Assembly (NCBI GenBank): GCA_963666275.2
Contig: CAXXOA010000001.1
Coordinates: forward strand, 928,001 to 992,000
Origin: Oceanispirochaeta sp.
GTDB lineage: Bacteria > Spirochaetota > Spirochaetia > DSM-2461
Reading direction: 5' to 3'
Length of the DNA: 64,000 nucleotides
Shown here: positions 7,823 to 21,521 of the stretch, in pieces
Numbering within the stretch: the first letter of the stretch is position 1
Layout of the letters: every line of letters begins with the position of its first letter
Program-made: the position numbers and the translations under genes
The notes under the pieces: model-generated
What the model saw: only the letters and a program-made list of their open reading frames with translations
What the model was told of the DNA's origin: nothing
The model's database searches: none

Positions 7823-8845
7823 ATGGTATCAATTGTTCATTATTTGCTTCATCTGTCCAGGCTCTTCTTTCTGGTGTTTCTGCTGGTATTCTCGTCCTGC
7901 CGGACAGCTCCTGATCTGAAAGAGCAGATTCTTAATATGCCGGCGAAGCAGTATACTCATTACTCTTTTGATTCCCGGTCTGATCTGATCTCACGGGTTA
8001 AGGATCCGCCTGCTGTCCTTCTGGATTATCTGAGGAATATGGATAACAGGGAGGACTATTCTGCATATACTCCGGATGAAAAAGAGCTGGCCATGCTGAA
8101 TGAGTATCTACAGCTTCTTCCTCCGAAAAATCTTGAAGTGATGCAGGAGAAACTGGCAGGGATCTATTTTGTTGAGAATCTGATTGGAAGTGCTCTGGCC
8201 GATTACGTCCTTGATGATGAAGGATGTCTTTACAACATATTGATTATCAATCCCGAAACTATGCATCACAGCATGACAGACTGGCTTAGTTACAGGGAGA
8301 ATTCCTGCTACAGGGACAGTCGTGACAGGATACAGATTTCCTGCGGCAGTAAATATACAGGTCTCTTATATACGCTCCTCCATGAATCCGCCCATATTGT
8401 GGATTACAATATGCATATCACTCCTTATACCGAGTACACAAGTATGATAGGAACAGGATACAGCCCCGATAAGAATAATGTTTTTATCCTGGATATCTGG
8501 AAGGATTACAGAACTCCGGTTAAAGAGTATTACAAAGAGAGCTTTATGGAAAATATATCCTTCTATGGTCTGGGGGAAGGTGCTGAAATTGATTTTGAAG
8601 GAGCTCAGGAGGTATATGATCAACTTCTGACGACTCCCTTCATCTCACTCTACGGTACCATGAGCTGGGCAGAAGATTTTGCAGAACTTGCCACCTGGCA
8701 TCACTATACTGAAGTTCTTGGAGAAACATATCAGGTTATTCTGAAGAGAGATAGTATGAATATCCGGGAATGGGGATTTTTGGAAAATCCCCTTGTAGAA
8801 GAGCGACTTGCATCTCTGGATGTCTTGTATCAGAAGAATCAGTAG
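7823..8845 (+). CDS. lipoprotein, putative zinc metallopeptidase
   Basis: lipobox-like LVFSSC; LLHESAH (HExxH) and downstream SLYG...AEDFAE. Confidence 0.65.
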   Translation: MVSIVHYLLHLSRLFFLVFLLVFSSCRTAPDLKEQILNMPAKQYTHYSFDSRSDLISRVKDPPAVLLDYLRNMDNREDYSAYTPDEKELAMLNEYLQLLPPKNLEVMQEKLAGIYFVENLIGSALADYVLDDEGCLYNILIINPETMHHSMTDWLSYRENSCYRDSRDRIQISCGSKYTGLLYTLLHESAHIVDYNMHITPYTEYTSMIGTGYSPDKNNVFILDIWKDYRTPVKEYYKESFMENISFYGLGEGAEIDFEGAQEVYDQLLTTPFISLYGTMSWAEDFAELATWHHYTEVLGETYQVILKRDSMNIREWGFLENPLVEERLASLDVLYQKNQ

Positions 8846-9720
8846 GATGTCTGTCTTGCGGAAGGATCCGCCAGAGACTCCAGGATCTGTCTGAAAAGAT
8901 TGTGAATCAGATACCTTTCAAAGGAATTTTCACTTTCAGGAAAGTAGCTGATCAGATTGGAGAGAAGCAGGTCCGTATCTTTTTTATTGATAGGAAAGCG
9001 GCGGCCCAGAAGGTTTGCCTCCAGGTCCCTGTTCCTCAGGATAAGACGGCCTCCGTTGGTAAAAGCCAGGCGGAAGTCTGAGAGGACTCCCTTTTCGATG
9101 GATGCCAGGCAGTTCACAGTCATAAAGCTGTCATTCTGAATATTGACTTTTCTATGAAAGGAGAAGTTGCCTTCGTAGTAGGGAATCCGTACCCGTGTAA
9201 GAACTTCCGCTTCCCCCAGGTTTATGGCCCCCTCCTGCGTCAGAAGGGAGTTGATGGTTGTCCAGCGGGATTTCATTGACATTTTCCCGTTTCTCCGGGG
9301 TTTCACATGACGGATCTCAATACGGCTGTCCAGGAGCTGCAGGACAGGCAGCAGGTCCATCCTCCTTCCGGGAATACAGATATTGCCGCCCAGGGTGGCC
9401 ATATTCCTGATAGGGTAGGGCCCCATTTCTGTCATGGTTTCCTGCATCAGGGGGATATTGAATATATAGGCTGTATCAATGAGTCTGTTGATGGTGACGC
9501 AGCACCCTGCTTCGGCATACCTGTCTGTCCGGGTGATCCGTTTCAGTTCTTCCAGCTGAGAAAGGGCCAGCACGGAGTGATGACCTTCCTCCTGGTTGAG
9601 ATAGTGATTCATCAGATGGGTCCCGCCGGCCAGAAGCTGGGTATTGGGACTCTTCCGGTACAGTGTCAGAAGTTCCAGCAGATTCCGGGGAATACTGATA
9701 TGAAACCCTTTCGCTTTCAT
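8839..9720 (-). CDS. FAD-binding subunit, xanthine dehydrogenase/CoxM family
   Basis: LLAGGTHL, IRNMATLGGNI. Confidence 0.85.
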   Translation of the reverse strand: MKAKGFHISIPRNLLELLTLYRKSPNTQLLAGGTHLMNHYLNQEEGHHSVLALSQLEELKRITRTDRYAEAGCCVTINRLIDTAYIFNIPLMQETMTEMGPYPIRNMATLGGNICIPGRRMDLLPVLQLLDSRIEIRHVKPRRNGKMSMKSRWTTINSLLTQEGAINLGEAEVLTRVRIPYYEGNFSFHRKVNIQNDSFMTVNCLASIEKGVLSDFRLAFTNGGRLILRNRDLEANLLGRRFPINKKDTDLLLSNLISYFPESENSFERYLIHNLFRQILESLADPSARQTSY

Positions 9721-10193
9721 TTCTTCTGCCTCCGCTGCCTGACTTCGGATGCCTTGAGAATTCCTTTTTTCAGAGTTTCATAGGGGGTGCAGTTGCATTT
9801 TACAGTGGTGAGAATCTCTTTCATCTGCCTTTTATCCGGTCTGATATATTTATCCAGAAGGATCCCGGTGGAGAGAGTCCGCGTGGGAGCGCAGTAGTCG
9901 CAGAGATGAACCCCCGCCTGCTTGAATCCCTCGAACACATCATTGAAATCCTCCAGTTCCGCATATCCTTCAATCGTGAGAACCTTCTTTCCCTTGATCT
10001 GAAATACAGGGACCATACAGGAGTAGACGAGTTCTCCGTCCAGCACGACCGTACAGAGGCCGCAGTACCCTTTTCCGCAGGCCGACCGCAGCCCTGTCAG
10101 ATTGTAGTGATCTCTGAGTATTTCCGAAAGCTTTTTATAGGCGGGGACTTCAATGGTTGTATCACTGCCGTTCAAATTGAATTCAATCAGCAT
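9717..10193 (-). CDS. 2x[2Fe-2S] subunit, xanthine dehydrogenase/CoxS family
   Basis: CGKGYCGLC...YSC and CDYC...CNC. Confidence 0.92.
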   Translation of the reverse strand: MLIEFNLNGSDTTIEVPAYKKLSEILRDHYNLTGLRSACGKGYCGLCTVVLDGELVYSCMVPVFQIKGKKVLTIEGYAELEDFNDVFEGFKQAGVHLCDYCAPTRTLSTGILLDKYIRPDKRQMKEILTTVKCNCTPYETLKKGILKASEVRQRRQKK

Positions 10194-12240
10194 ATTCAGG
10201 GCCTCCCGTGAGAAGGTCTCCCGGAGTCAGGGGGAGAGATGTTATCTTCAGTCCCGTCGCCAGAGACACAGCCTGGGAAAAAGCCGCCGGAACGGATCCC
10301 AGGACAAGTCCTTCGAGCCCTCCGATCCTCCGTGCCGGGTTGTCCGAATCGATAAACTCGATTTTAAGTTCCGGAAAGACTGTCGGGCGAATGGACTGTT
10401 TTTTCAGGCACTGGCAGAGAGCCAGGCGGACTTCCGCTTCGATATAGGATCTGGCAGACTTCTGGTCCAGTATATAACCGCAGTCCAGGGAGAGCCATAT
10501 CCGGGGGACTTTCAGTTCCATGGTCGCCGTTTCCAGTTCTACATCTACCACGGCAGCTCCCCAGGAGGGGAAGGCGAAAGGGTTTCCCTTCAGGGTATCC
10601 CTGTCCCACTCTTTTTTGGTCCGCCGGCGATAGGTGCTGGTTTCCGTTATGGGAAGAGCCTCTCTGAATCGTTTCTTCTGTACAGAATCACAGCTCTGAT
10701 CAATCAGCCTTGTCAGTATCGTGGTTGATCTTGAAAGGGTGGAGGGGCCTGTAAATGTCTGCTCATCCGCCAGATCCATTGTAAAGGAAATCTGTTCCTC
10801 CGGAATGGACATCTGGGCGGAGATCCTCTTGCGCCAGAGGGCCATGAGACCCGGAGACGCGGGGACTCCGTTGATCCTTATATTCAGGTTTCCCTCTTTA
10901 TCCAGGGTCGTAGAGGTATTGGCGGCCGTGAGTGTTTTTGCCTGAGAGAGAAATTCATTTCCCTGAAAACAGACTGCCATACCGATACCGCTGTAGGATT
11001 TCGGCTGAAGTTCCAGTTGCTTGATATTTTCCCGGAGCTGTTTTCCCGCGGCATGTTTTCTTGCAAAATCAGAGCGCTTTGTCAGGTGCTCCATCATTTC
11101 CTTCAAAGGCGGGGCCTGTTTGACCGAACCGGCTGTGGAGAGAAGATTCCCTTTGCCGACAAGATTTTTCCGCCGCCAGGTAGCCGGGTCTATACCGGAC
11201 TGTTCCGCCAGAGTATTGGCAAGCATTTCCAGACCGTAGAAGCCCTGAGGCAGTCCCCATCCTGTCATGGGAAGCCAGGGGGGGGTGTTGCTCCGGTAGG
11301 CTTCTCCCTGTATGCGGATATTCCGGCACTGATAGTATCCCGCAGCGGATATACAGATTCTGCTGAGAACTTCCGAGGCAAAACAGCCGAAGGCTCCCGC
11401 GTCGAGCTGAAAGTTTCCTTCCAGGGCCGTGAGTTTTCCCTGGCTGTCAATGCCGGCTCTGTAGTGTATTTCAAGGACTCGGGGAATAAGGATCTCCCGG
11501 GTACTGTACTCCATGAGTTTGATAGGCTGTCTCAGGATGGAGGCAACCGCTACGGCCAGTGCTGCGGGAATGGCAGACTGCCAGATATGGGAATCCCAGG
11601 AACGGCCGGCTGTATTGAACTGAAGCTCAACCTGCTTGGGACTGATTTTGGCCGACAGGGCGCAGAATTTCCTGACAAGCGAGGGCCATTGGGTATGGAG
11701 ATTGAGAATATAGCGGCCGCCCTCTTTGGTACAGAAAACTCCCATACGGGGATAGCTGGGTACCTCCGGCATTTCCAGCGAGTAGGTTCCTTCCAGTATT
11801 ATCTCCGCCTTGTTCAGTCCCTTCTGTATATCTCCTTTTGAAACCTCTTTTACAGCGGCTCTTGTCCCGGGATCATTGATTCCCGGAGGAGGGTAGGCGG
11901 GAATCTTCCTGATACGGCACTGGATTTTCCGGCCGTAGCGGAAAAGAAGATCCTGATCGGGACTTGTGAGAACCCCTACGGGCTGTCCTTTATAGTGTAC
12001 TTTTTTATCGGCCAGAAGAGGTATGGATCCCTCGGGAAGGGGCATCTCATTTTTCCCCGGTAGATCCTCAGCTGCGAAAAAATCCATGTTTTCAGGGAGT
12101 TCGGGAACATCAATGCCCAGAAGGAGTCCCGAATCATAGGGACTGCGGATCAAGAGAGCATAAATCAGCTTTTTGCTGGTCATATCCTCGGGAAATCGAA
12201 CCCGTCCCGCCATGCGGTTCCGGAATTTTTCTTCATCCAA
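10183..12240 (-). CDS. xanthine dehydrogenase/CoxL-family large subunit homologue, degenerate Moco motifs
   Basis: IRSP, VHYKGQPV, DAGAF, RRKNL, GIGMA, DCG retained. TTG 12240 overlaps the degT stop; the ORF track uses GTG 12270. Confidence 0.8.
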   Translation of the reverse strand: MDEEKFRNRMAGRVRFPEDMTSKKLIYALLIRSPYDSGLLLGIDVPELPENMDFFAAEDLPGKNEMPLPEGSIPLLADKKVHYKGQPVGVLTSPDQDLLFRYGRKIQCRIRKIPAYPPPGINDPGTRAAVKEVSKGDIQKGLNKAEIILEGTYSLEMPEVPSYPRMGVFCTKEGGRYILNLHTQWPSLVRKFCALSAKISPKQVELQFNTAGRSWDSHIWQSAIPAALAVAVASILRQPIKLMEYSTREILIPRVLEIHYRAGIDSQGKLTALEGNFQLDAGAFGCFASEVLSRICISAAGYYQCRNIRIQGEAYRSNTPPWLPMTGWGLPQGFYGLEMLANTLAEQSGIDPATWRRKNLVGKGNLLSTAGSVKQAPPLKEMMEHLTKRSDFARKHAAGKQLRENIKQLELQPKSYSGIGMAVCFQGNEFLSQAKTLTAANTSTTLDKEGNLNIRINGVPASPGLMALWRKRISAQMSIPEEQISFTMDLADEQTFTGPSTLSRSTTILTRLIDQSCDSVQKKRFREALPITETSTYRRRTKKEWDRDTLKGNPFAFPSWGAAVVDVELETATMELKVPRIWLSLDCGYILDQKSARSYIEAEVRLALCQCLKKQSIRPTVFPELKIEFIDSDNPARRIGGLEGLVLGSVPAAFSQAVSLATGLKITSLPLTPGDLLTGGPEYAD

Positions 12241-13435
12241 GGGAAACCCCCGACTGCATCCGCGCGGCACAGCCTATTGTCCTGACGCAGCTGCAGACTC
12301 TCTCCAGCTGCTCTTCCGTCATATCCGGAAAAAGTGGCAGGCTGATGATGCGTCTGAACATCTCCGCCGCCCGGGGCAGATCCTGAGGATTCAGACTGTA
12401 CCGTCCGGCATAGTAGCTCATCATATGAAGAGGTTTGTAGTGCACCGAGGTTCCGATTCCCATCTCCTGCAGTTCTTCGATAAACCGGTCCCGGTCAATG
12501 GAGAGTCTTTCCGGTTTGAGGCGGATCATGAAAAGGTGCCAGGCATGGGTCTCCTTCATAGCGGGAAGTTCCAGAAAATCCAGGTCTTTCAGATTTTCCA
12601 GATAGGCTTCCACAAGGGCTCTTCTCCTGCGGAGAAACTCTTCCGCCCGTTTCAGCTGCACCCTGCCTATGGCAGCGGACAGATCGGTCATATTGTATTT
12701 GAATCCGGGAGCGGCAATATCGTACTCCCAGGCGGCTTTCCGGGAGGTATAGCGGTCCCAGGCGGCTCTGTTGATTCCGTGGAGCCGCATGATCTCCATC
12801 CGCCTGACAAGATCCGGATCCGTTGCGGCAATCATTCCGCCTTCTCCGGTGGTTATGGTCTTATTGGCATAGAAAGAGTACACTCCCGCATCGCTGAAGG
12901 TGCCCACATACCCCCGATCCGTTTTCACAGGGAAGCAGTGCGCCGCATCTTCCACCAGAAAGAGATTGTACTTTTCAGCAAGGCTATGAAGTTCTTCCAG
13001 GTATTCGGGATCTCCCCCGATATGGACCGGGAGGATTCCCCGTACTCGTTTCCCTTTGCCCAGGAGTCGTAAAATCTCGGTTTCCGTTTTTTCAGGGTCC
13101 ATGTTCCAGCTGTGCTCTCCCAGATCCACAAACCAGGGATCTGCGCCGCAGTAGCGGATAACCTCCGCAGTGGCTGTAAAGGTGTAGGAGGGGACTAGAA
13201 CAATATCTCCGGGACCGACACCCAGAGCTTCCATCACGAGATGGAGCCCGGCTGTTGCCGAATTGACGGCTAACGTGCGGGAGGCTCCGGTATAGCGGGC
13301 AAACTCCTGTTCAAAGGCCAGGGTTTCCTTTCCCGTGGTCAGCCAGCCGCTTCTGAGAACTCTCAGGACAGCCTCTTCCTCCTCCCGTCCGATGGAGGGG
13401 CGGGAAAAAGGGATAAACTCAGTATTCCGGTTCAT
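12233..13435 (-). CDS. DegT/DnrJ/EryC1/StrS PLP-dependent sugar aminotransferase
   Basis: NSATAGLHL, VEDAAH, SFYANKTITTGEGG, GFKYNMTD. Confidence 0.95.
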   Translation of the reverse strand: MNRNTEFIPFSRPSIGREEEEAVLRVLRSGWLTTGKETLAFEQEFARYTGASRTLAVNSATAGLHLVMEALGVGPGDIVLVPSYTFTATAEVIRYCGADPWFVDLGEHSWNMDPEKTETEILRLLGKGKRVRGILPVHIGGDPEYLEELHSLAEKYNLFLVEDAAHCFPVKTDRGYVGTFSDAGVYSFYANKTITTGEGGMIAATDPDLVRRMEIMRLHGINRAAWDRYTSRKAAWEYDIAAPGFKYNMTDLSAAIGRVQLKRAEEFLRRRRALVEAYLENLKDLDFLELPAMKETHAWHLFMIRLKPERLSIDRDRFIEELQEMGIGTSVHYKPLHMMSYYAGRYSLNPQDLPRAAEMFRRIISLPLFPDMTEEQLERVCSCVRTIGCAARMQSGVSLG

Positions 13436-14912
13436 TGTCTGGTACCTGAAGGGAGGGAAAGAATTTTTTCAGAATATTCCGGAGAGCATTCCGGTTTCTG
13501 AATACGTCCGGATGTTCCGGATCGAAAAAGCAGATGGGATCCACTTCTTCGGCCAGTTCTCCGGCGGAAAAATCAGCCTGCTCCGCCTTGACTTTGAAGA
13601 TCCGGGCGTATTCGGTCTGGATAGGATCCTCCCTGTTGTTCCAGAGTTTCTCCACAACCTTTTCTCCCGGACGCATTCCTATAAAATGGATGGGAATATC
13701 TTCCTCTTTGTAGCCGTAGAAGCGAATCATCTGTTTGGCCAGGTCCAGTATCCGGATCGGTTCACCCATATCCAGGACATACAGGCCGCCGTTGTGTCCC
13801 ACCCCTCCGGCTTTCAGAACAAGGGATGCCGCTTCGGGTATGGTCATAAAATAGCGGGTCGTATCCGGGTGGGTCACTGTCACGGGACCTCCCGCGAGGA
13901 TCTGTTCCTTGAAGAGAGGGATAATGCTTCCCCGTGATCCCAGAACATTGCCGAACCGGACAACCATGTAGTCCAGCCCCTTCTTCCTCTCCTCCAGAAC
14001 AAGCATCTCCGCCAGACGTTTGGTGACGCCGTAGGTACAGGAGGGGGAGACGGCTTTGTCTGTGGATATCAGTACAAGGCGGGGAACCCCTGCGGCCTCG
14101 GCGGCTCTAATCAGGTTGAGGGTTCCGAAGACATTGTTCTTTACCGCTTCCACAGGATTGAATTCAAGCATGGGCACATGCTTGTGGGCGGCGCAGTGAA
14201 ACACGACGTCCGCCTTCAGACGTTTCAGGATAAACTCCATATACTGCTTGTCCTGCAGATCCCCGATGATGGGTACCACGGTGGCTTTTTCACCCACTCC
14301 GCCTTCCTGCAGAAGCCTGAGTTCCCTGTCGATCCTGTAAATGCTGTTCTCTCCATGACCCAGCAGATAGAGCCTCTCGGCTCCTCCCGAAAGGAGCTGC
14401 CTTGCCAGTTCACTTCCGATACTCCCTCCGGCTCCTGTAATGAGAACTCTCTTGCCCCTCAGGTAGGAAAGGCTCTCCACAAGATCTATGGCTACCGGAT
14501 TCCGTCCCAGAAGGTCTTCCGGATCAATATCTCTTGCCTGAACCAGATGGGCGTGGCCATTGACGATCTGGGATATATTGGGAAGGATCCGGATCCTGGT
14601 AAACTCGGCCTTGCTCAGTGTGTTGTAGATCCTGGCCAGCTCTTCTCTTGAAGCCGTGGGAATGGCAATGATGGCTTCGTCCGCGGGAGTCGTCCTGAGT
14701 ATCCTGGTAAAGGCATTAATCGGCCCCAGGACCGGGACATCTGCTATCTGGGTTCCAATCTTTTCAGGATTGTCATCCAGGAAGGCAACAACCTCTCCGG
14801 CGTTTTTTTTTCTGTTGATCTCTTCTGCTATATTAGAGCCGGCAAACCCGGCTCCTATAATGAATATTCTATTCCCTTTCTTTACGCTCACCTGATCAGA
14901 ATAACACAGCAT
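13419..14912 (-). CDS. CapD/PglF-type nucleotide-sugar 4,6-dehydratase (no N-terminal TM region)
   Basis: DLLGR, TGAGGSIGSEL, AAHKHVP, ISTDKAV, YGVTK, VRFGNVLGSRGS, RPGEK. Confidence 0.93.
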   Translation of the reverse strand: MLCYSDQVSVKKGNRIFIIGAGFAGSNIAEEINRKKNAGEVVAFLDDNPEKIGTQIADVPVLGPINAFTRILRTTPADEAIIAIPTASREELARIYNTLSKAEFTRIRILPNISQIVNGHAHLVQARDIDPEDLLGRNPVAIDLVESLSYLRGKRVLITGAGGSIGSELARQLLSGGAERLYLLGHGENSIYRIDRELRLLQEGGVGEKATVVPIIGDLQDKQYMEFILKRLKADVVFHCAAHKHVPMLEFNPVEAVKNNVFGTLNLIRAAEAAGVPRLVLISTDKAVSPSCTYGVTKRLAEMLVLEERKKGLDYMVVRFGNVLGSRGSIIPLFKEQILAGGPVTVTHPDTTRYFMTIPEAASLVLKAGGVGHNGGLYVLDMGEPIRILDLAKQMIRFYGYKEEDIPIHFIGMRPGEKVVEKLWNNREDPIQTEYARIFKVKAEQADFSAGELAEEVDPICFFDPEHPDVFRNRNALRNILKKFFPSLQVPDNEPEY

Positions 14913-15113
14913 GATTGATTAGTTAATAGAACTGTTATTAAAACTTTTCTCGTACAAAAGGCTTCGTAATCCTGAAAAAAACGCCGATACTAAGAAAAAC
15001 CTCCTGTTGTCTGCATGAGCAGACGGCAGTGCCGTTGATCATCCTCTGATAATCGACGGCCCTTGAGAGAGAGGATTTTCAGAGAAAATCCGGACGCTTT
15101 TACAGGAGTTATG

Positions 15114-15566
15114 ATGAGTCGATTTATAGTATGGAAAAAATTACTGCCCCTGTTTACAGGCCTTGTCTTTATGACGGCAAATCTTGCCGGGCAGACTGTT
15201 ATTGTCAATACGGTTCCGGCAGCCTCTGCGGGAGAGCAGGAACCTGATTCCTCGGAGGCTGTTGATTCGGGGATTATGGAAGTTCTCTTTGACAGGGGCT
15301 ATATCATTTTCAGTCAGTCAACAGACGATTCCAGAGAGACCCTCCTTTCCACTGCCAGGAATACGGGGGCGGATATTGTTCTCTCATGGAAAATGCAGGA
15401 TGAAGCGGTTTCGGGTATGCTGCTGGACTGTAATACAGGAGATGTGGTACGGAGTGTAGACCTCTCCGTGGAAGATCTTGAAAACCCGGTGGAAAATCTT
15501 CACAGGAAATATGTAGCCCTGGGAGAAAAACTATGTGATCATCTGATTCCGGAAAACTGGAACTGA
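15114..15566 (+). CDS. exported hypothetical protein
   Basis: AGGAG before ATG 15114; signal-peptide-like N-terminus. Confidence 0.7.
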   Translation: MSRFIVWKKLLPLFTGLVFMTANLAGQTVIVNTVPAASAGEQEPDSSEAVDSGIMEVLFDRGYIIFSQSTDDSRETLLSTARNTGADIVLSWKMQDEAVSGMLLDCNTGDVVRSVDLSVEDLENPVENLHRKYVALGEKLCDHLIPENWN

Positions 15567-15583: not shown

Positions 15584-16780
15584 ATGCATACAGAAAGATT
15601 AGGAAAAATATTATTTCAAAGAGCCGCGGTCCTCTGGCTGCTTCTGGCGCCGGTTCTGCTTTCATCCGAACCTGTCTGGTCGGGGAATGCTTCGGTGGAC
15701 GGTGCAGAGTTTGTCAATTTTATAGAAGATACTCCCCTGGCCGGAGCCTCCAGTTCCTTTACAAGAAATACTGTCATTGAGGTTACCAATGCCCAGAACG
15801 GAAGGACCGTGGAAGTGACCATTGTGAAAAGAGCTCCCCGGCCCGGAGTCTTTCTTGTGTTAAGTTCCGCAGCAGGGGAGGCCCTGGGACTTCCGGCGGA
15901 CCAGGTTGTCCCGGTACAGGTCCGGGTAAAAAGCGATAGCGCTTCCTCCAGCTATGAAAACAGGTTCGAAAGTCCTGATCCCGATATAAATCCTGCGGTT
16001 TCACTTCCCGAGGAGGCTGCTGCCGCCGGTACAGCTCTTGTCCCACCCGATGCCTCTGTTCCTCCGGAAGCCCTTCCTGAGGCGGGAGATGCAGATTCCG
16101 TAGAGGGTGAGTTTTCACCGGAAGCGGAAGAGGCGCTGCCCGAACCGGATTTTCTTGACGGTCCTGTTCCGGTTCCCCTGCCGGATGTACCCATTGTCAT
16201 GGAAGAAGAGACCATCCCGGAGGAAGGGGTCTCTCCCGTTTCTCCTGAGGTTCCCCCTGTGGAGGAGGTCATGGGTGAGGACTCCTTTCCAATGGACGAA
16301 GACGCTCTTGTACTGGCGGAAGAACCGGCGGTCATACCCGTTCCGGAGGAAACAGCGGAAGAAGAGCTCTTTCCGGAAGAGAGCGATCCTGCGGAAGGCT
16401 TGCTCCCCGAGGATATGGCAGGAGAGAATGTTATCTACTTTCTGACTCCTTCGGATTTCAGGCCTCCTGAAGCTCCGGATGTGGAGGAGGAGATTGTTCC
16501 GGTTTATGTTGACAGGGAGGAGCTTGAAAACAGGATTGAAGAGCAGCTTGAAAACGGCTCCTCCTATATACAGCTGGGTGCCTACTCTTCATCGGAACTT
16601 GTCTACGGAGAAATGGACAGGATTGCCGTGAAGTATCCCATGATTGTCTGGACAGACGATTCGGGAAGCGGTCCTGTATACAAGCTTCTGATCGGCCCCC
16701 TCACAGGTGATGAAACAGGTGTTCTTGTCTATCGTTTCAGAGCCGAGGGGTATCACGACCTTTTCCTTTACAGACCCTGA
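15584..16780 (+). CDS. RlpA-like double-psi barrel + acidic Pro-rich linker + SPOR domain protein
   Basis: VIEVTNAQNGRTVEVTIV...LSSAAGEALG; C-terminal YIQLGAYS...YKLLIGP. Confidence 0.8.
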   Translation: MHTERLGKILFQRAAVLWLLLAPVLLSSEPVWSGNASVDGAEFVNFIEDTPLAGASSSFTRNTVIEVTNAQNGRTVEVTIVKRAPRPGVFLVLSSAAGEALGLPADQVVPVQVRVKSDSASSSYENRFESPDPDINPAVSLPEEAAAAGTALVPPDASVPPEALPEAGDADSVEGEFSPEAEEALPEPDFLDGPVPVPLPDVPIVMEEETIPEEGVSPVSPEVPPVEEVMGEDSFPMDEDALVLAEEPAVIPVPEETAEEELFPEESDPAEGLLPEDMAGENVIYFLTPSDFRPPEAPDVEEEIVPVYVDREELENRIEEQLENGSSYIQLGAYSSSELVYGEMDRIAVKYPMIVWTDDSGSGPVYKLLIGPLTGDETGVLVYRFRAEGYHDLFLYRP

Positions 16781-16835: not shown

Positions 16836-16957
16836 GGTTTTCTCAGAAATTGAGAATTTAAGTATATGGACAATGATGGACAATAGAAGACATAATGAGT
16901 CTATAATAGAAATTTATTCGATAAAAACTCCCTTCCGGGGGAGATAATGAGGTGCCT

Positions 16958-17419
16958 ATGAATCTGAGTAAAGTGATTGCCCCTGAGTGCTGTATTTCCC
17001 TGACCGAGAGCAGTAAGACTGAAGTCCTGATAGAACTGATGGAAAAGATTGCCCTTTCGGGGTTCGTTGAAGACCTGGAGTCTCTTAAAAAAGAGATCTT
17101 CTACAGGGAACAGCTGATGAGTACCGGTATCGGTATGGGGATCGGAATCCCCCATGTCCGCTTTAAAGGAATCAAAAATCCTGTGGTGGCAGTGGGAATC
17201 AGACCCGAAGGGATCAAAGACTATGAAAGTATAGACAAAGAAGATGTGAAAATCGTCTTTATGATCCTTGTGGGAGAAGATCAGCACAAAGAGCATATCC
17301 GCCTTCTGTCCCAGATCATGGAAAAACTGAAGAGTCCCGAAGATCGGCAGACCCTTTCAGGATTGACGGATTCACAGAAAATCTACAGCTTTCTGACCGG
17401 CGGAGAGTCTCATGAGTGA
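16958..17419 (+). CDS. PTS EIIA (Ntr/fructose-mannitol type) protein
   Basis: REQLMSTGIGMGIGIPH with phospho-His; HIRLLSQI; GAGGTG RBS. Confidence 0.92.
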   Translation: MNLSKVIAPECCISLTESSKTEVLIELMEKIALSGFVEDLESLKKEIFYREQLMSTGIGMGIGIPHVRFKGIKNPVVAVGIRPEGIKDYESIDKEDVKIVFMILVGEDQHKEHIRLLSQIMEKLKSPEDRQTLSGLTDSQKIYSFLTGGESHE

Positions 17420-19073
17420 GTTGGTTTCAGGTCATCTGAACATCCTGCTTCTTCTGGGGGTCGTGCTCTCTCTGGGGACTTTGGGGGGACGGTTTTTTCA
17501 GTTCCTTAAAATTCCCCAGGTGGTAGGCTATATCATCATCGGTATTTTTCTGGGCCAGTCCGGACTGAAACTTGTCAATACCGATACGGTTGCCAACCTG
17601 AAATACTTCAGCTCCTTCGCCCTGGCAATTATCGGTTTTCTTATCGGGGGAGAACTGAAAATCCAGGTTATCAAAAAGTATGGAAAACAGTTTACCTGGA
17701 TCCTGTTTCTGGAGGCCATCACCGCCTTTGTGGTGGTGTCTCTTCTGGTGACACTGGTGGGACTCCTCCTTTTCAGGGATGTGAACCTGGCAGTTTCTCT
17801 GGGGCTCCTTCTCGGCGCCATCTCCTCGGCTACCGCACCGGCGGCGACGACGGATGTGCTGTGGGAGAATAAAACCCGGGGCCCTCTGACAACAACCGTT
17901 CTGGGACTGGTTGCCATGGACGACGGTGTTGCCCTTCTGCTGTTTGCGATTGCCACAAGTGTGGCCGGGGCCCTGACGGGAGAGGTCACAACCGGATTCG
18001 GTCTGAGTATTCTCCATCTTGTATACGAGGTGGGTGTGGCCATCATCCTGGGTTCCCTGGTGGGCTGGGGCCTTTCCAAGCTGATCAGAGGATATCTGGA
18101 AGAGGACAAAATCCTTGTGTTCTCAATCGGAGCGATCCTGCTGATTATCGGTCTGACCCAGATCCTGGAACTGGATATGATTCTCAGTGCCATGTCCATG
18201 GGATTTTTCATGTCCAACTTCGCTCCCCGTAGGAGTAAAGTCCTCTTTACTCTGGTAGAAAAATTCGCCCCTCCCATCTATGTGCTGTTTTTCGTACTGG
18301 TAGGAGCCAAGCTGAATATCTGGGCCATAACGGGAATTGTCGCCGTTCTGGCATCGGTTTTTCTGGTGGGAAGAACCTCCGGGAAATTCCTGGGGGCCTT
18401 TCTGGGGGCAAAAATCTCTCAGGCTCCCGAAACAGTCAGAAAGTATCTTCCTTTCTGCCTGCTCAGCCAGGCCGGTGTGGCTGTGGGACTTTCCATAGTG
18501 GCCGGTCAGACTTTTCAGGGAGAACTGGGCAATATCATTGTCATGGTCGTAACCACTTCCACTTTCATTGTACAGCTGGCGGGACCTCCCTTTGTCAAAT
18601 ACGCGGTTGGGAAAGCCGGGGAAGTGGGGCTGAATATTACCGAGGAGGATCTGATCCAGAAAAGCCGGGCCGGCGATATGATGCATCCAGTTCCCCCCAT
18701 CCGGGAAGATCAGCCTGTGACAGAGATCCTTTCCCATTTCAGTAAGTACGAAAACCTGATCTATCCTGTTGTGGACCGGGATAACAAGCTCATCGGAGTG
18801 ATTACCATCGATCATCTCAAAGATACCTTTATGGCTTCCCAGCTTTCCGGATTCCTCCTGGCTCATGATATTTCCATACCCGTACCGGATGCCTGCCGAA
18901 TGGATACCCCTGCTGAGGAGGTGTATCTGCTTATGAAAAAACACAATCTGGATTACATGCCTGTGACGGATGAAAATAACCAGGCTGTGGGGGTCGTGGA
19001 GAAACGAATTGCCCAGAAGCTCTTCTCTCTGAGAATTCTGGAACTCCGGCAGAAAGCCGAGGCCCTGGGGTAG
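17412..19073 (+). CDS. cation:proton antiporter with C-terminal CBS pair
   Basis: many TM segments, SATAPAAT, VAMDD, QAGVAVGL; CBS motifs YPVVD...LIGVIT and MPVTD...VGVV. Confidence 0.9.
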   Translation: MSELVSGHLNILLLLGVVLSLGTLGGRFFQFLKIPQVVGYIIIGIFLGQSGLKLVNTDTVANLKYFSSFALAIIGFLIGGELKIQVIKKYGKQFTWILFLEAITAFVVVSLLVTLVGLLLFRDVNLAVSLGLLLGAISSATAPAATTDVLWENKTRGPLTTTVLGLVAMDDGVALLLFAIATSVAGALTGEVTTGFGLSILHLVYEVGVAIILGSLVGWGLSKLIRGYLEEDKILVFSIGAILLIIGLTQILELDMILSAMSMGFFMSNFAPRRSKVLFTLVEKFAPPIYVLFFVLVGAKLNIWAITGIVAVLASVFLVGRTSGKFLGAFLGAKISQAPETVRKYLPFCLLSQAGVAVGLSIVAGQTFQGELGNIIVMVVTTSTFIVQLAGPPFVKYAVGKAGEVGLNITEEDLIQKSRAGDMMHPVPPIREDQPVTEILSHFSKYENLIYPVVDRDNKLIGVITIDHLKDTFMASQLSGFLLAHDISIPVPDACRMDTPAEEVYLLMKKHNLDYMPVTDENNQAVGVVEKRIAQKLFSLRILELRQKAEALG

Positions 19074-19075
19074 GT

Positions 19076-19849
19076 ATGGAGAATACAGATACAATAGACG
19101 CCCTGCTTAAAAAAAAGGGCCTCTCCGAAAAGGACCTGGCGGATTTCCTGGCTCAGAGAGGCTGGGGATGTGAGCATCCCTCTACCTGGCGGATCGATCT
19201 GGAACAGGACTTTCTGACCCTCTGGAAAAAAGTCTCTCCCTTTACCATGATTTCCATGGAGAGAGGATACGCTGTCTATCAGGCGGTCCATCACATTCTG
19301 GACCGGGATCTGCCCGGAGACTTTGTTGAGTGCGGAGTCTGGAAGGGGGGAACCTGCATGCTCATGGCTCTGGCGTTGAAGGAGAGAGCTGTTTCCGACC
19401 GGAATATCTGGCTCTATGATACCTTTGAAGGAATGACCGAACCGGGGCCGGAAGACAGAATCGCTTCTTCCGGTCAGGCTGTCTCTGAACGCTGGCAGGA
19501 AGGCTGGTGGGCCGTGGGAATGGAAGAGGTCAGACGGAATCTGCTCTCTACAGGATTTCCAGAGGAGAAGATCCGTCTGGTACCCGGTGATGTGTGCAAA
19601 ACACTATCCGAGACAGCGCCCCAAGAGATTTCTCTCCTGCGCCTGGATACGGACTGGTATGAGTCAACCAGAGCGGAACTTGAAGTCCTCTATCCCCGTC
19701 TGGTGGGCCGGGGGGTGCTTATCATTGATGATTACGGACACTTCAGCGGATCCAGGCAGGCGGTGGATGAGTATTTCACCGGGCGCCGGGATGCACCTCT
19801 TCTTCAGAGAAGTGACTATACCGGCAGGCTGGGTGTCAAAATAGACTGA
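19076..19849 (+). CDS. TylF/MycF/NovP-family O-methyltransferase
   Basis: GDFVECGVWKGG, YDTFEG, LLRLDTDWYEST, IIDDYG. Confidence 0.92.
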   Translation: MENTDTIDALLKKKGLSEKDLADFLAQRGWGCEHPSTWRIDLEQDFLTLWKKVSPFTMISMERGYAVYQAVHHILDRDLPGDFVECGVWKGGTCMLMALALKERAVSDRNIWLYDTFEGMTEPGPEDRIASSGQAVSERWQEGWWAVGMEEVRRNLLSTGFPEEKIRLVPGDVCKTLSETAPQEISLLRLDTDWYESTRAELEVLYPRLVGRGVLIIDDYGHFSGSRQAVDEYFTGRRDAPLLQRSDYTGRLGVKID

Positions 19850-19857
19850 CAGGGCTT

Positions 19858-20979
19858 TCAGAATGCCAGGCTGTGGCGGTAGTGGAACAGGAGATCCAGA
19901 AAATCCCTGTTCTGCAGCGGATTCTCTTTGAAGTAGAATAGATGGGAATCGCAGCGGCAGTCGCTGCAGCCGAAACCCGGGATGATCCTGTCGGACAGCT
20001 TTTTCAGGTCCTCCGCCAGGGGGCATTCCAGATCTTTCTCCGTATAAACGGGAAAATCCTTCACCTTTACCGCAGAAGCCAGGAGATAGTCTATATGCCA
20101 TCTCTTCTTTTTCCGTTTTCTCATATGCCTGGCCACTCGGGATTTCAGATTCCTGGCGGCTGATCCCGCATAGATGTAGAATCCCCTCTGAAAGTTCATC
20201 TCCCCCAGGCTTCCCACTGTAATGGACTCTTCCTCCAGTTCGGCCATTATCATATAGATGCCGCTGTTCTCCTCCGCGGCCCTGTGAAGATCGGTCATAA
20301 CCGGGATCTCCGTAGAAATCAGAGAGAGCTCTCCCTCGGCGGTGCATGTGGTGCTGACACCATGGAAGTGCACATAGGGGGACACCTCATGAACGGTCCT
20401 GGCAAAGACAGGATCTGTATGCAGATTGGGAATAAAGGTTCTGGTTTCCCGGTTCATAATGACAAAAACCACATGGCACTCCCGGGAGGGATCCGTAGCG
20501 GCTATCTCGGCCAGCTCCTTCAGATGCCGGGAGGCTCTGTCCGACGGAGCATCGGGAAACATGGCGACCCCTTCTTCGATAAGGGTACAGGCTTTGACCT
20601 CCATGAAGATCTCTTTACCTCCCAGACGGAAATGCCAGTCAAACCGGGAGTTTCCCCATCGGTATTCAGCTTTTATCTCTTCTGCCTCGGGAAAAAGACG
20701 GGGTATGATCAGTTCTCCTGTGACGCTATTGGCCCTGGCAGAGAAAAGGGACACGGTCTGCCCCTTGTATACGGCGGCCGCCAGTGTCCAGGCTGTTTTC
20801 CTTTCAGGATCTTTTCCTTTTTCCAGGATCATGGTGCGTCCCGGATTCATAAGTTCGATAAGCCTGCCGGGATTGGGGCAGTGAGCCCTGACCGGACCTT
20901 CGGGCAGCTGGACGTTGACTATAAAGCGGTTGGGACGGTCAATCAGAGTCCCTACGGCATCGGGTGTGAATATTTTCAA
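19858..20979 (-). CDS. sfsA: SfsA nuclease fused to DUF123/GIY-YIG-like domain
   Basis: RPNRF, HCPNPGRL, MEVKACTL, FPDAPSDRA; then YIYAGSA, RWHIDYLL, GFGCSDCRCDSHL. TTG start overlaps the tlpA-family stop. Confidence 0.85.
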   Translation of the reverse strand: MKIFTPDAVGTLIDRPNRFIVNVQLPEGPVRAHCPNPGRLIELMNPGRTMILEKGKDPERKTAWTLAAAVYKGQTVSLFSARANSVTGELIIPRLFPEAEEIKAEYRWGNSRFDWHFRLGGKEIFMEVKACTLIEEGVAMFPDAPSDRASRHLKELAEIAATDPSRECHVVFVIMNRETRTFIPNLHTDPVFARTVHEVSPYVHFHGVSTTCTAEGELSLISTEIPVMTDLHRAAEENSGIYMIMAELEEESITVGSLGEMNFQRGFYIYAGSAARNLKSRVARHMRKRKKKRWHIDYLLASAVKVKDFPVYTEKDLECPLAEDLKKLSDRIIPGFGCSDCRCDSHLFYFKENPLQNRDFLDLLFHYRHSLAF

Positions 20980-21521
20980 GGTGTTTCTTCCAGGAGTTCC
21001 CTGATGGTCCGTAGGATCAGGGGATTGTCCCATGAGGCACTGTCCTTTATAACAGCAGCCACACGTCCCTTCGCGTCTATCAGGTAGGAGGCGGGGATTC
21101 CCTTGAGATTATAGGCTCCCAGATAGGTGTCATCGGGAAAGTAGTACACCGGGAGTTCCAGTTCCATATTCCGAAGGAACTCCTGCACATAGGAGATCTC
21201 TTCATTCATATTGACGGCACGGATTTTAAGACCTTCAGAATCGAGGATCCGGTGAAGCCGCTGAAGAGAGGGCAGTTCGGCCCGGCAGGGAGGGCACCAG
21301 GTCGTCCAGAAGGTGATGAGAGTCACAAGTCCCTTTTCTGGCAGAATCTCTCTGTTCTTCCCTGTCTCATCGGTGACCAGGATCTCAGGAGCCGCGGTCC
21401 TTTCTGCGGGTACGGTAAACCCCAGCTGTTTCAGCCGGCTGACATCCGCTTCGGCCGTTATCAGGGCAGAGTGCGTCAGTAAAAAAAGAAGAATCATCCG
21501 GAAAATCCAGTTTCTTTTCAT
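20976..21521 (-). CDS. TlpA-family thiol:disulfide oxidoreductase
   Basis: FWTTWCPPCRAELP, GIPASYLID, signal peptide. Confidence 0.92.
   Translation of the reverse strand: MKRNWIFRMILLFLLTHSALITAEADVSRLKQLGFTVPAERTAAPEILVTDETGKNREILPEKGLVTLITFWTTWCPPCRAELPSLQRLHRILDSEGLKIRAVNMNEEISYVQEFLRNMELELPVYYFPDDTYLGAYNLKGIPASYLIDAKGRVAAVIKDSASWDNPLILRTIRELLEETP

Follow-up and report, generated by a model that had tools for sequence, protein, structure and literature searches.

A spirochaete protein trio with a xanthine dehydrogenase fold, lost cofactor residues and a possible role as a redox-sensing scaffold

The window analysed here is a stretch of 64,000 nucleotides from Oceanispirochaeta sp. (assembly GCA_963666275.2, contig CAXXOA010000001.1, positions 928,001 to 992,000), and our subject within it is a cluster of five minus-strand genes: a sugar-nucleotide dehydratase gene (capD), an aminotransferase gene (degT) and a trio encoding the large (L), iron–sulfur (Fe-S; S) and flavin adenine dinucleotide-binding (FAD-binding; M) subunits of an apparent xanthine dehydrogenase (XDH) (Table 1). 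As an earlier note on this DNA had described, each gene overlaps the next, by 17, 8, 11 and 4 bp in turn. The start of L was placed at the TTG at 12240, 8 bp into the stop end of degT, in agreement with the 685-residue homolog P0001; the longest open reading frame (ORF) would begin at the GTG at 12270. Pfam assigns the five proteins to Polysacc_synt_2, DegT, MoCoBD_1/2 with the hammerhead domain, Fer2/Fer2_2 and FAD_binding_5, and every NCBIfam model scored under its cut-off on them, those of the XDH family far under. The same genome (G000; G, L and f numbers are our handles for genomes, loci and families) encodes MoaC, MoeA and eight further, canonical large subunits, among which window L is the odd one out because it scores 125 bits on MoCoBD_1 against 201–263 bits for the others. 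A promoter and terminator scan of the window returned sites no more numerous than in shuffled sequences.

Table 1. Genes of the cluster and its divergent neighbours, in window coordinates.
Feature	Coordinates	Strand	Details
CapD/PglF-type UDP-GlcNAc 4,6-dehydratase	13419..14912	-	497 aa; PF02719 363 bits
DegT-family pyridoxal phosphate (PLP) sugar C4-aminotransferase, ArnB/PseC-like	12233..13435	-	400 aa; PF01041 390 bits; catalytic Lys246
L subunit, XDH large-subunit fold	10183..12240	-	685 aa; PF02738 122 bits, PF20256, PF01315
S subunit, Fe-S	9717..10193	-	158 aa; PF00111, PF01799
M subunit, FAD-binding PCMH fold	8839..9720	-	293 aa; PF00941 100 bits
Small gene, no known family	15063..15566	+	divergent; positional counterpart of conserved neighbour
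RlpA/SPOR-like gene	15584..16780	+	divergent; conserved cluster neighbour, 71/121 loci

The predicted model of window L (pLDDT 85.7) aligns in Foldseek with xanthine oxidase/dehydrogenase at TM-scores of 0.83–0.84. Mapped onto human xanthine oxidoreductase (XOR), however, the GGGFG loop, Arg913 (the Arg of FRGFG), the Gln of EMGQG and Gln1195 (QxEG), all positions with established cofactor or catalytic roles in XOR, have been lost, and the column of the catalytic Glu (KGxGE), placed from canonical rows rather than from an alignment of solved structures, holds a Gly. Across 133 distinct L orthologs, none of nine cofactor and catalytic positions is kept in 42, one in 62 and two in 29 (a count that leaves out Borreliaceae and G167), whereas 27 of 29 rows from canonical relatives retain all nine. 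Where the cofactor loops of canonical enzymes have small residues, the orthologs have bulky conserved ones, Trp185 (131/133), Trp220 (108/133) and Leu502 (96/133), which we infer fill the emptied cofactor cavity; the two Trp, Glu290 and the motif K-[KR]-RFR-x-x-LP are specific to the clade. On the S subunit, the pterin-contacting Gln of QCGxC is present in none of 136 orthologs, as opposed to 19 of 19 canonical proteins. Taken together, sequences and model indicate that the trio has the XDH fold but is not a molybdoenzyme.

Co-occurrence with genes for synthesis of the molybdenum cofactor (Moco), a check suggested in the earlier note, proved sparse. We searched 80 genomes, all but one of them trio carriers: 14 have MoaC, which leaves 65 of the 79 carriers without a match, and 13 have MoeA; both searches drew a blank in all 35 genomes of the Treponema family. 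MoCF_biosynth was matched in 1 of 22 genomes (0 of 16 of the Borrelia type) and XdhC_C in none of five. The statement in the earlier note that Treponema pallidum lacks Moco synthesis agrees with its genome (locus L121), where no match to MoaC, MoeA, MoCF_biosynth or XdhC_C was found. In G359, G365, G396, G398 and G436 (loci L161, L152, L156, L162 and L158), XDH genes with canonical motifs lie in purine-degradation clusters and MoaC and MoeA are again unmatched, possibly through cofactor scavenging or assembly gaps.

The sites for electron transfer are present in the window, where S has all eight Cys ligands for two [2Fe-2S] sites and an Arg-rich C-terminal tail, and M has the AGGT and RNxATxGGN motifs of FAD binding. 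The N-terminal four Cys are intact in 127 of the 136 S orthologs and the C-terminal four in 132, two of the four exceptions being a one-residue shift. The C-terminal CxxC...CxC alone is left in T. pallidum, three Borreliaceae and G167, which have lost the N-terminal set, and in G212 (L142) seven of the eight S ligands are gone from an intact loaP-capD-degT-L-S-M-dnaE cluster. A strict FAD pattern fails in 25 of 134 M proteins, mostly through single substitutions; a clear loss of the motifs is seen at L026, in a single genus of the window's family and in Borreliaceae, B. burgdorferi among them. Since the FAD site and each Fe-S site have been lost in some lineages, no complete electron wire is universal. 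The proposal in the earlier note of a repurposed Fe-S/flavin complex therefore stands as regards repurposing, in a Moco-free form, and falls as regards the Fe-S/flavin wire, which is broken in T. pallidum and Borreliaceae. We regard the family as a clear case of stepwise cofactor loss under selection, with molybdenum lost first, then the distal Fe-S site and FAD, and rarely the proximal site.

The ratio of non-synonymous to synonymous substitution rates (dN/dS) of L, S and M lies between 0.04 and 0.12 in three pairs and between 0.13 and 0.31 in a Borrelia pair (ligA, 0.22), which shows that the trio is under purifying selection; pseudogene decay was considered and ruled out by the open frames and the low dN/dS. 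L and S are more basic than their canonical counterparts (in six of six same-genome pairs for L), and the trio carries conserved motifs of its own: the RFR-containing motif of L, SDFxRK and the Arg-rich tail of S.

A single L protein used as query returned no related loci, whereas an alignment of L retrieved them; L was matched in all 37 other genomes of the order, in G030 only at the score level of canonical paralogs. Record titles are spirochaetal for all but two of 80 named loci, one of the exceptions being 'Opitutales'. With an M profile, built with members of several of the families concerned, 102 of the 103 genomes of the class within a 401-genome sample of the phylum yielded an M-type gene, only some of the 102 loci having been inspected; the profile matched 55 of 55 genomes of the Treponema family, 16 of 16 of the Borrelia-type family and 0 of 89 of family f24. 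An apparent absence from the Borreliaceae-type family (0/16 at E 1e-40) was discarded as a threshold artefact in view of that 16/16. Thirteen loci fetched from outside the class all encode enzymes with canonical motifs. The sole genome of the class without a trio match is G424 (96% complete), which carries flagellin, NeuB and a different CapD.

The nearest relatives of the trio are spirochaete L-S-M enzymes encoded beside ygfK, ygeY, ygeW and deaminase genes, a neighbourhood of anaerobic purine degradation. A quick LG+G4 tree of 29 rows places the degenerate clade on a long stem (0.61) with an SH-aLRT support of 100. The trio would thus have arisen from the purine-degradation XDH clade in an ancestor of the class.

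Synteny across spirochaetes, also raised in the earlier note, is extensive. In the fetched regions around 121 ortholog loci, a set that includes duplicates and short contigs, we found degT at 101, capD at 97, the SPOR/RlpA gene at 71, loaP at 68, dnaE at 31 and ligA at 20, and none of these near any of 19 canonical XDH loci; the association of capD and degT with the trio is far beyond chance. T. pallidum, identified by exact look-up (S, M and DegT of L121 are named T. pallidum or Treponema), has the order capD-degT-L-S-M, as the earlier note had stated. From these counts we derive an ancestral arrangement with ligA, SPOR and the small gene on one strand and loaP-capD-degT-L-S-M-dnaE-yggT-recG-rsmD on the other, the names besides loaP, capD and degT having been read by eye from sequence. 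Because dnaE follows M immediately in 27 of 106 loci, the adjacency seen in the window is best taken as a relic of an old mixed gene cluster. The window form has lost loaP at the head of the cluster and dnaE at its tail: no LoaP gene was found upstream of capD in the window, whereas the upstream NusG paralog clears the LoaP cut-off in four of five related loci tested. A second NusG-family gene, possibly a displaced loaP, lies far from the window (G000:C1:2319471-2319758). Where close relatives carry dnaE, the window has a lipoprotein-like ORF (7823-8845) with a weak zinc-peptidase match, which converges on M with a 7 bp overlap. Beyond the SPOR gene, positions 16952-21033 encode a phosphotransferase system (PTS) EIIA protein, a Na/H exchanger with CBS domains, a TylF-type O-methyltransferase and an SfsA-DUF123 fusion; tylF and sfsA recur beside the cluster in several relatives.

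The dehydratase and aminotransferase are recognizable sugar enzymes. Window CapD has a Thr-Asp-Lys plus YxxxK motif, and the Pfam profile of its ORF shows no membrane helices; its best solved relative is Campylobacter jejuni PglF/WlaL (E 4.5e-80), and the Tyr is present in all 70 pattern-matched proteins among 92 orthologs. It likely catalyses the first step to a 4-amino-6-deoxy sugar. DegT scores 366 bits on the PseC model and 350 bits on the ArnB model, both under the cut-off, and a separate comparison matches it to ArnB at E 8e-85; since it keeps the catalytic Lys (114/114 orthologs) and has no conserved Cys motif, no reductase is needed. Scores stay under the equivalog cut-offs of PseB and PseC, yet the cluster's CapD is the only strong match to the PseB model in five of five genomes tested, including G272 and G125, and the pair likely feeds the synthesis of flagellin nonulosonic acid. 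The genome of the window has a second dehydratase/aminotransferase pair (126 and 214 bits) at G000:C2:1941445-1943593.

The trio persists in the absence of these enzymes. The cluster's capD is present in 60 of 80 genomes, mostly at 57–85% identity, and the other 20 have none or a more distant one; at E 1e-85, degT was matched in none of the 19 trio carriers among those 20. As this query missed three true orthologs (G308, G317 and G365), a genome was scored as lacking the enzymes only when the capD search, the degT search and the locus itself gave the same answer, which leaves 19 of 80 genomes with the trio and without the cluster's capD or degT. They fall into about five lineages: three of the Borreliaceae type, twelve in f6, f12 and f16, two of one f1 genus, G237 and G338. 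Flagellin was not found in five of five trio-only genomes tested from f6, f12 and f16, nor was a strong NeuB match in f5, f6, f16 and six of eight f12 genomes. At L118, L140, L141 and L193, loaP is still joined to the trio after loss of capD-degT, and degT remains joined to L even where capD has been displaced. In one Treponema genus, genes unrelated to glycans separate capD from degT; the junction (L189 5268-19298, L190, L192, L195-L196) is an insertion site holding a variable array of S41 peptidase genes and, in G272, also a peptidase-containing ATP-binding cassette (ABC) exporter and an HlyD protein, all inserts lying behind loaP. In G281 (L191 7397-19590), a CDP-sugar/teichoic-acid-like block on the opposite strand sits between capD and L, and the cluster's degT was not found. 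The trio is therefore independent of capD/degT, of Moco synthesis and of flagella.

A counterpart with a known phenotype exists in Borrelia burgdorferi. The genes bb0554-bb0555-bb0556, named xdhACB by Phelan et al. (2023), encode proteins of 622, 155 and 289 residues on one transcript (PMC9993122). According to the part of that report drawn on here, the deletion mutant grows and moves normally in culture, is sensitive to H2O2 and could not be recovered from mice, and was complemented in trans; urate rescued it and allopurinol phenocopied it, while neither urate nor enzyme activity could be measured (PMC9993122). The same text reads the proteins as a Moco xanthine dehydrogenase and mentions neither Treponema nor cofactor biosynthesis. 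In the portion consulted of another study, these genes are grouped with candidates for a membrane-damage response (PMC5333916). Our locus L185, Borreliella chilensis by exact protein look-up, encodes L, S and M of 625, 155 and 287 residues, and in L185-L187 the same three genes come after ligA; in Borreliaceae an unassigned gene sits between ligA and L. One primer from the report has three mismatches to L185 and a second has no match, and L185 M shares a 90% cluster with the B. burgdorferi protein. The alignment of Borreliaceae L with the profile of the clade spans 585 columns (E 3.6e-5, probability 71%), and S and M are homologous to those of the trio at E 1e-17 to 1e-20. The three Borreliaceae L proteins share 13–14 of 37 clade-specific residues and 1–2 of 51 canonical-specific ones and fall within the trio clade (SH-aLRT 100). 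Shared residues and position thus give good support to orthology with the window trio. The Borreliaceae proteins matched no Pfam family and, since their Moco, FAD and distal Fe-S motifs are absent, a working XDH is very unlikely there.

The reading that we put forward, tentatively and at a little under an even chance, is that the trio is a class-wide XDH-fold complex that has lost its cofactor and catalytic residues and serves as a non-catalytic redox- or metal-sensing scaffold protecting the cell under oxidative stress. We propose a non-catalytic complex because the three-part body is present in every lineage and the C-terminal four-Cys site of S in nearly every one, and persistence where the neighbouring sugar genes are gone implies that the trio likely has a job of its own. 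L, S and M would still assemble, with bulky residues occupying the empty cofactor pocket; redox or metal state would be reported by the C-terminal four-Cys metal site in S, the cofactor element that is lost least often; input from NAD(P)H through FAD and Fe-S would be an accessory retained in most lineages; the new conserved surface motifs might bind a partner; and capD and degT would be co-transcribed neighbours occupied with flagellin nonulosonic acid. In its wider form, for which we would claim somewhat less, a molybdoenzyme would have turned at the origin of the class into a cofactor-independent three-protein machine, a pseudo-enzyme redox- or metal-sensing hub that is misnamed xanthine dehydrogenase and required for infection by the Lyme spirochaete.

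Several observations weigh against this scaffold. The catalytic Glu is kept in 67 of 133 orthologs (29/29 canonical) and the substrate-binding Arg (human Arg881 equivalent) in 90 of 133, and these, with the allopurinol effect in the portion of the Borrelia report consulted (PMC9993122), could possibly reflect a residual purine pocket. Missing Moco synthesis genes prove nothing by themselves, because five genomes hold canonical XDH without MoaC or MoeA. Most orthologs keep the full FAD/Fe-S set (127/136; about 109/134 by the strict FAD pattern), which fits a real oxidoreductase, and function may differ by lineage; conversely, the sensing step is weakened by G212, where even the C-terminal Cys set is missing. 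An approximately unbiased (AU) test did not reject an origin of the long-branched Borreliaceae proteins from the canonical clade (p 0.18), so the case for their orthology is made by shared residues, by position and by the presence of a single copy. The stress phenotype is known only from Borrelia, the most eroded form, and 'sensor' and 'scaffold' are deduced from what is dispensable.

In XDH, the cluster bound by the N-terminal Cys set links FAD to the proximal cluster, and its ligands are lost in T. pallidum, Borreliaceae and G167; Borrelia, the one lineage for which a phenotype has been measured, has lost the FAD motifs as well. These losses make another reading of the trio unlikely, though well worth considering: a Moco-free NAD(P)H:acceptor oxidoreductase whose FAD and two [2Fe-2S] clusters deliver electrons to an acceptor docked at the empty pocket of L, such as a protein of peroxide defence, the eroded forms being secondary simplifications. 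Such an enzyme would suit the retention of both Cys sets in most S orthologs and of the FAD motifs in most M proteins, all of them present in the window, as well as the peroxide sensitivity of the Borrelia deletion in the text consulted (PMC9993122). The earlier note had instead placed the trio in the CapD/DegT amino-sugar pathway as a redox or tailoring step, which might mean a reductase resembling E3 of CDP-3,6-dideoxyhexose synthesis or an enzyme for the acyl group of a flagellin sugar. The overlapping frames, the frequency of degT and capD among the 121 loci, the LoaP-type antiterminator heading 68 of them, the tight joining of degT to L and the unusual deoxy-hexanoyl group described for a T. 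denticola flagellin glycan (PMC13439194) all speak for it. Yet in 19 of 80 genomes the trio is present and these enzymes are not, lineages with no flagellin or strong NeuB match have it, loaP stays with it after capD-degT is lost, G424 has flagellin and NeuB and no trio match, and DegT is an ordinary Lys aminotransferase unlike E1; the glycan role is not upheld as the main task of the trio, and we judge it quite improbable.

A shade less probable again is a nucleic-acid- or replisome-associated factor whose loss shows as oxidative sensitivity through DNA maintenance. The position of dnaE right after M (27/106) and of ligA in the flanks (20/121), neither of them near canonical loci, would agree with it, as would the basic character of L and S, the RFR motif and the Arg-rich S tail; however, gene order in spirochaetes is generally conservative, L still has a median charge close to neutral, erosion has reached the basic motifs in Borreliaceae and, in the text consulted, the Borrelia deletion grows normally in culture (PMC9993122). 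Finally, the published reading, a true xanthine dehydrogenase making protective urate on scavenged Moco, accounts for the urate rescue and the allopurinol phenocopy, and both the fold and the canonical XDH genes kept by some spirochaetes negative for Moco synthesis are compatible with it. Cofactor-contact motifs are nevertheless lost on both L and S, no XdhC chaperone was found in the five genomes tested, the Borreliaceae proteins lack a Pfam match, the N-terminal Cys set and the FAD motifs, and in the published study urate went undetected and activity unconfirmed (PMC9993122); we regard it as highly improbable.

The sequences fit poorly with the name xanthine dehydrogenase and with the urate mechanism that was founded on it. 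The analysis reassigns a locus that Borrelia needs in order to survive in both tick and mouse and that T. pallidum has kept in a genome of 1.14 Mb. It also ties the Borrelia phenotype to a family found throughout the class, some of whose members are less eroded and belong to free-living and cultivable species, where the biochemistry can be tested directly. If the scaffold reading is true, a new function has been conserved across the class, from its free-living members as far as T. pallidum and Borrelia. The component folds were already known, and the Borrelia operon has been published under another reading. A literature search, with subscription journals outside its scope, found no paper on a class-wide Moco-free clade, none tying bb0554-0556 to treponemal genes, none under the TP0077-0081 locus tags and none treating xanthine dehydrogenase as a Moco-free pseudoenzyme, a topic on which only unrelated plant work was returned; one T. 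pallidum paper merely lists TPASS_0079/0081 as XDH-like.

Set beside known systems, the trio resembles the three-subunit molybdenum hydroxylases (R. capsulatus XdhAB, 1jro; bovine xanthine oxidase, 1fiq; B. subtilis PucCDE; CoxLMS; 4-hydroxybenzoyl-CoA reductase, 1rm6) in fold, subunit set and, in most orthologs, Fe-S and FAD motifs, and differs from them in having lost GGGFG, the Arg of FRGFG, EMGQG, the Gln of QxEG and, in half, the catalytic Glu, as well as any link to Moco synthesis or XdhC. The spirochaete purine-cluster L-S-M paralogs (e.g. G000:C1:284438), its nearest sister group, have the same gene order but keep all motifs, are patchily distributed and in 0 of 19 cases lie near capD, degT, loaP, ligA or dnaE. 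Like PglF/PglE and PseB/PseC, capD and degT encode a dehydratase and a C4-aminotransferase; unlike them, the CapD is PglF-like with Tyr for Met, the aminotransferase is ArnB-like and all scores lie under the equivalog cut-offs. Of the related loci, 68 of 121 are headed by loaP in the manner of LoaP-led operons, which the cluster in the window is not. The E1/E3 pair of CDP-3,6-dideoxyhexose synthesis shows that a DegT-family enzyme can work together with a flavin/Fe-S reductase, but E1 has His for Lys and Fe-S ligands of its own, whereas the cluster's DegT has the Lys and no conserved Cys motif, and the putative reductase is not co-distributed with it. The Borrelia genes bb0554-0556 have the same L-S-M succession, sizes near those of L185 and ligA adjoining; against them, the window form is far less eroded, with FAD motifs and both Cys sets intact, and stands behind capD-degT.

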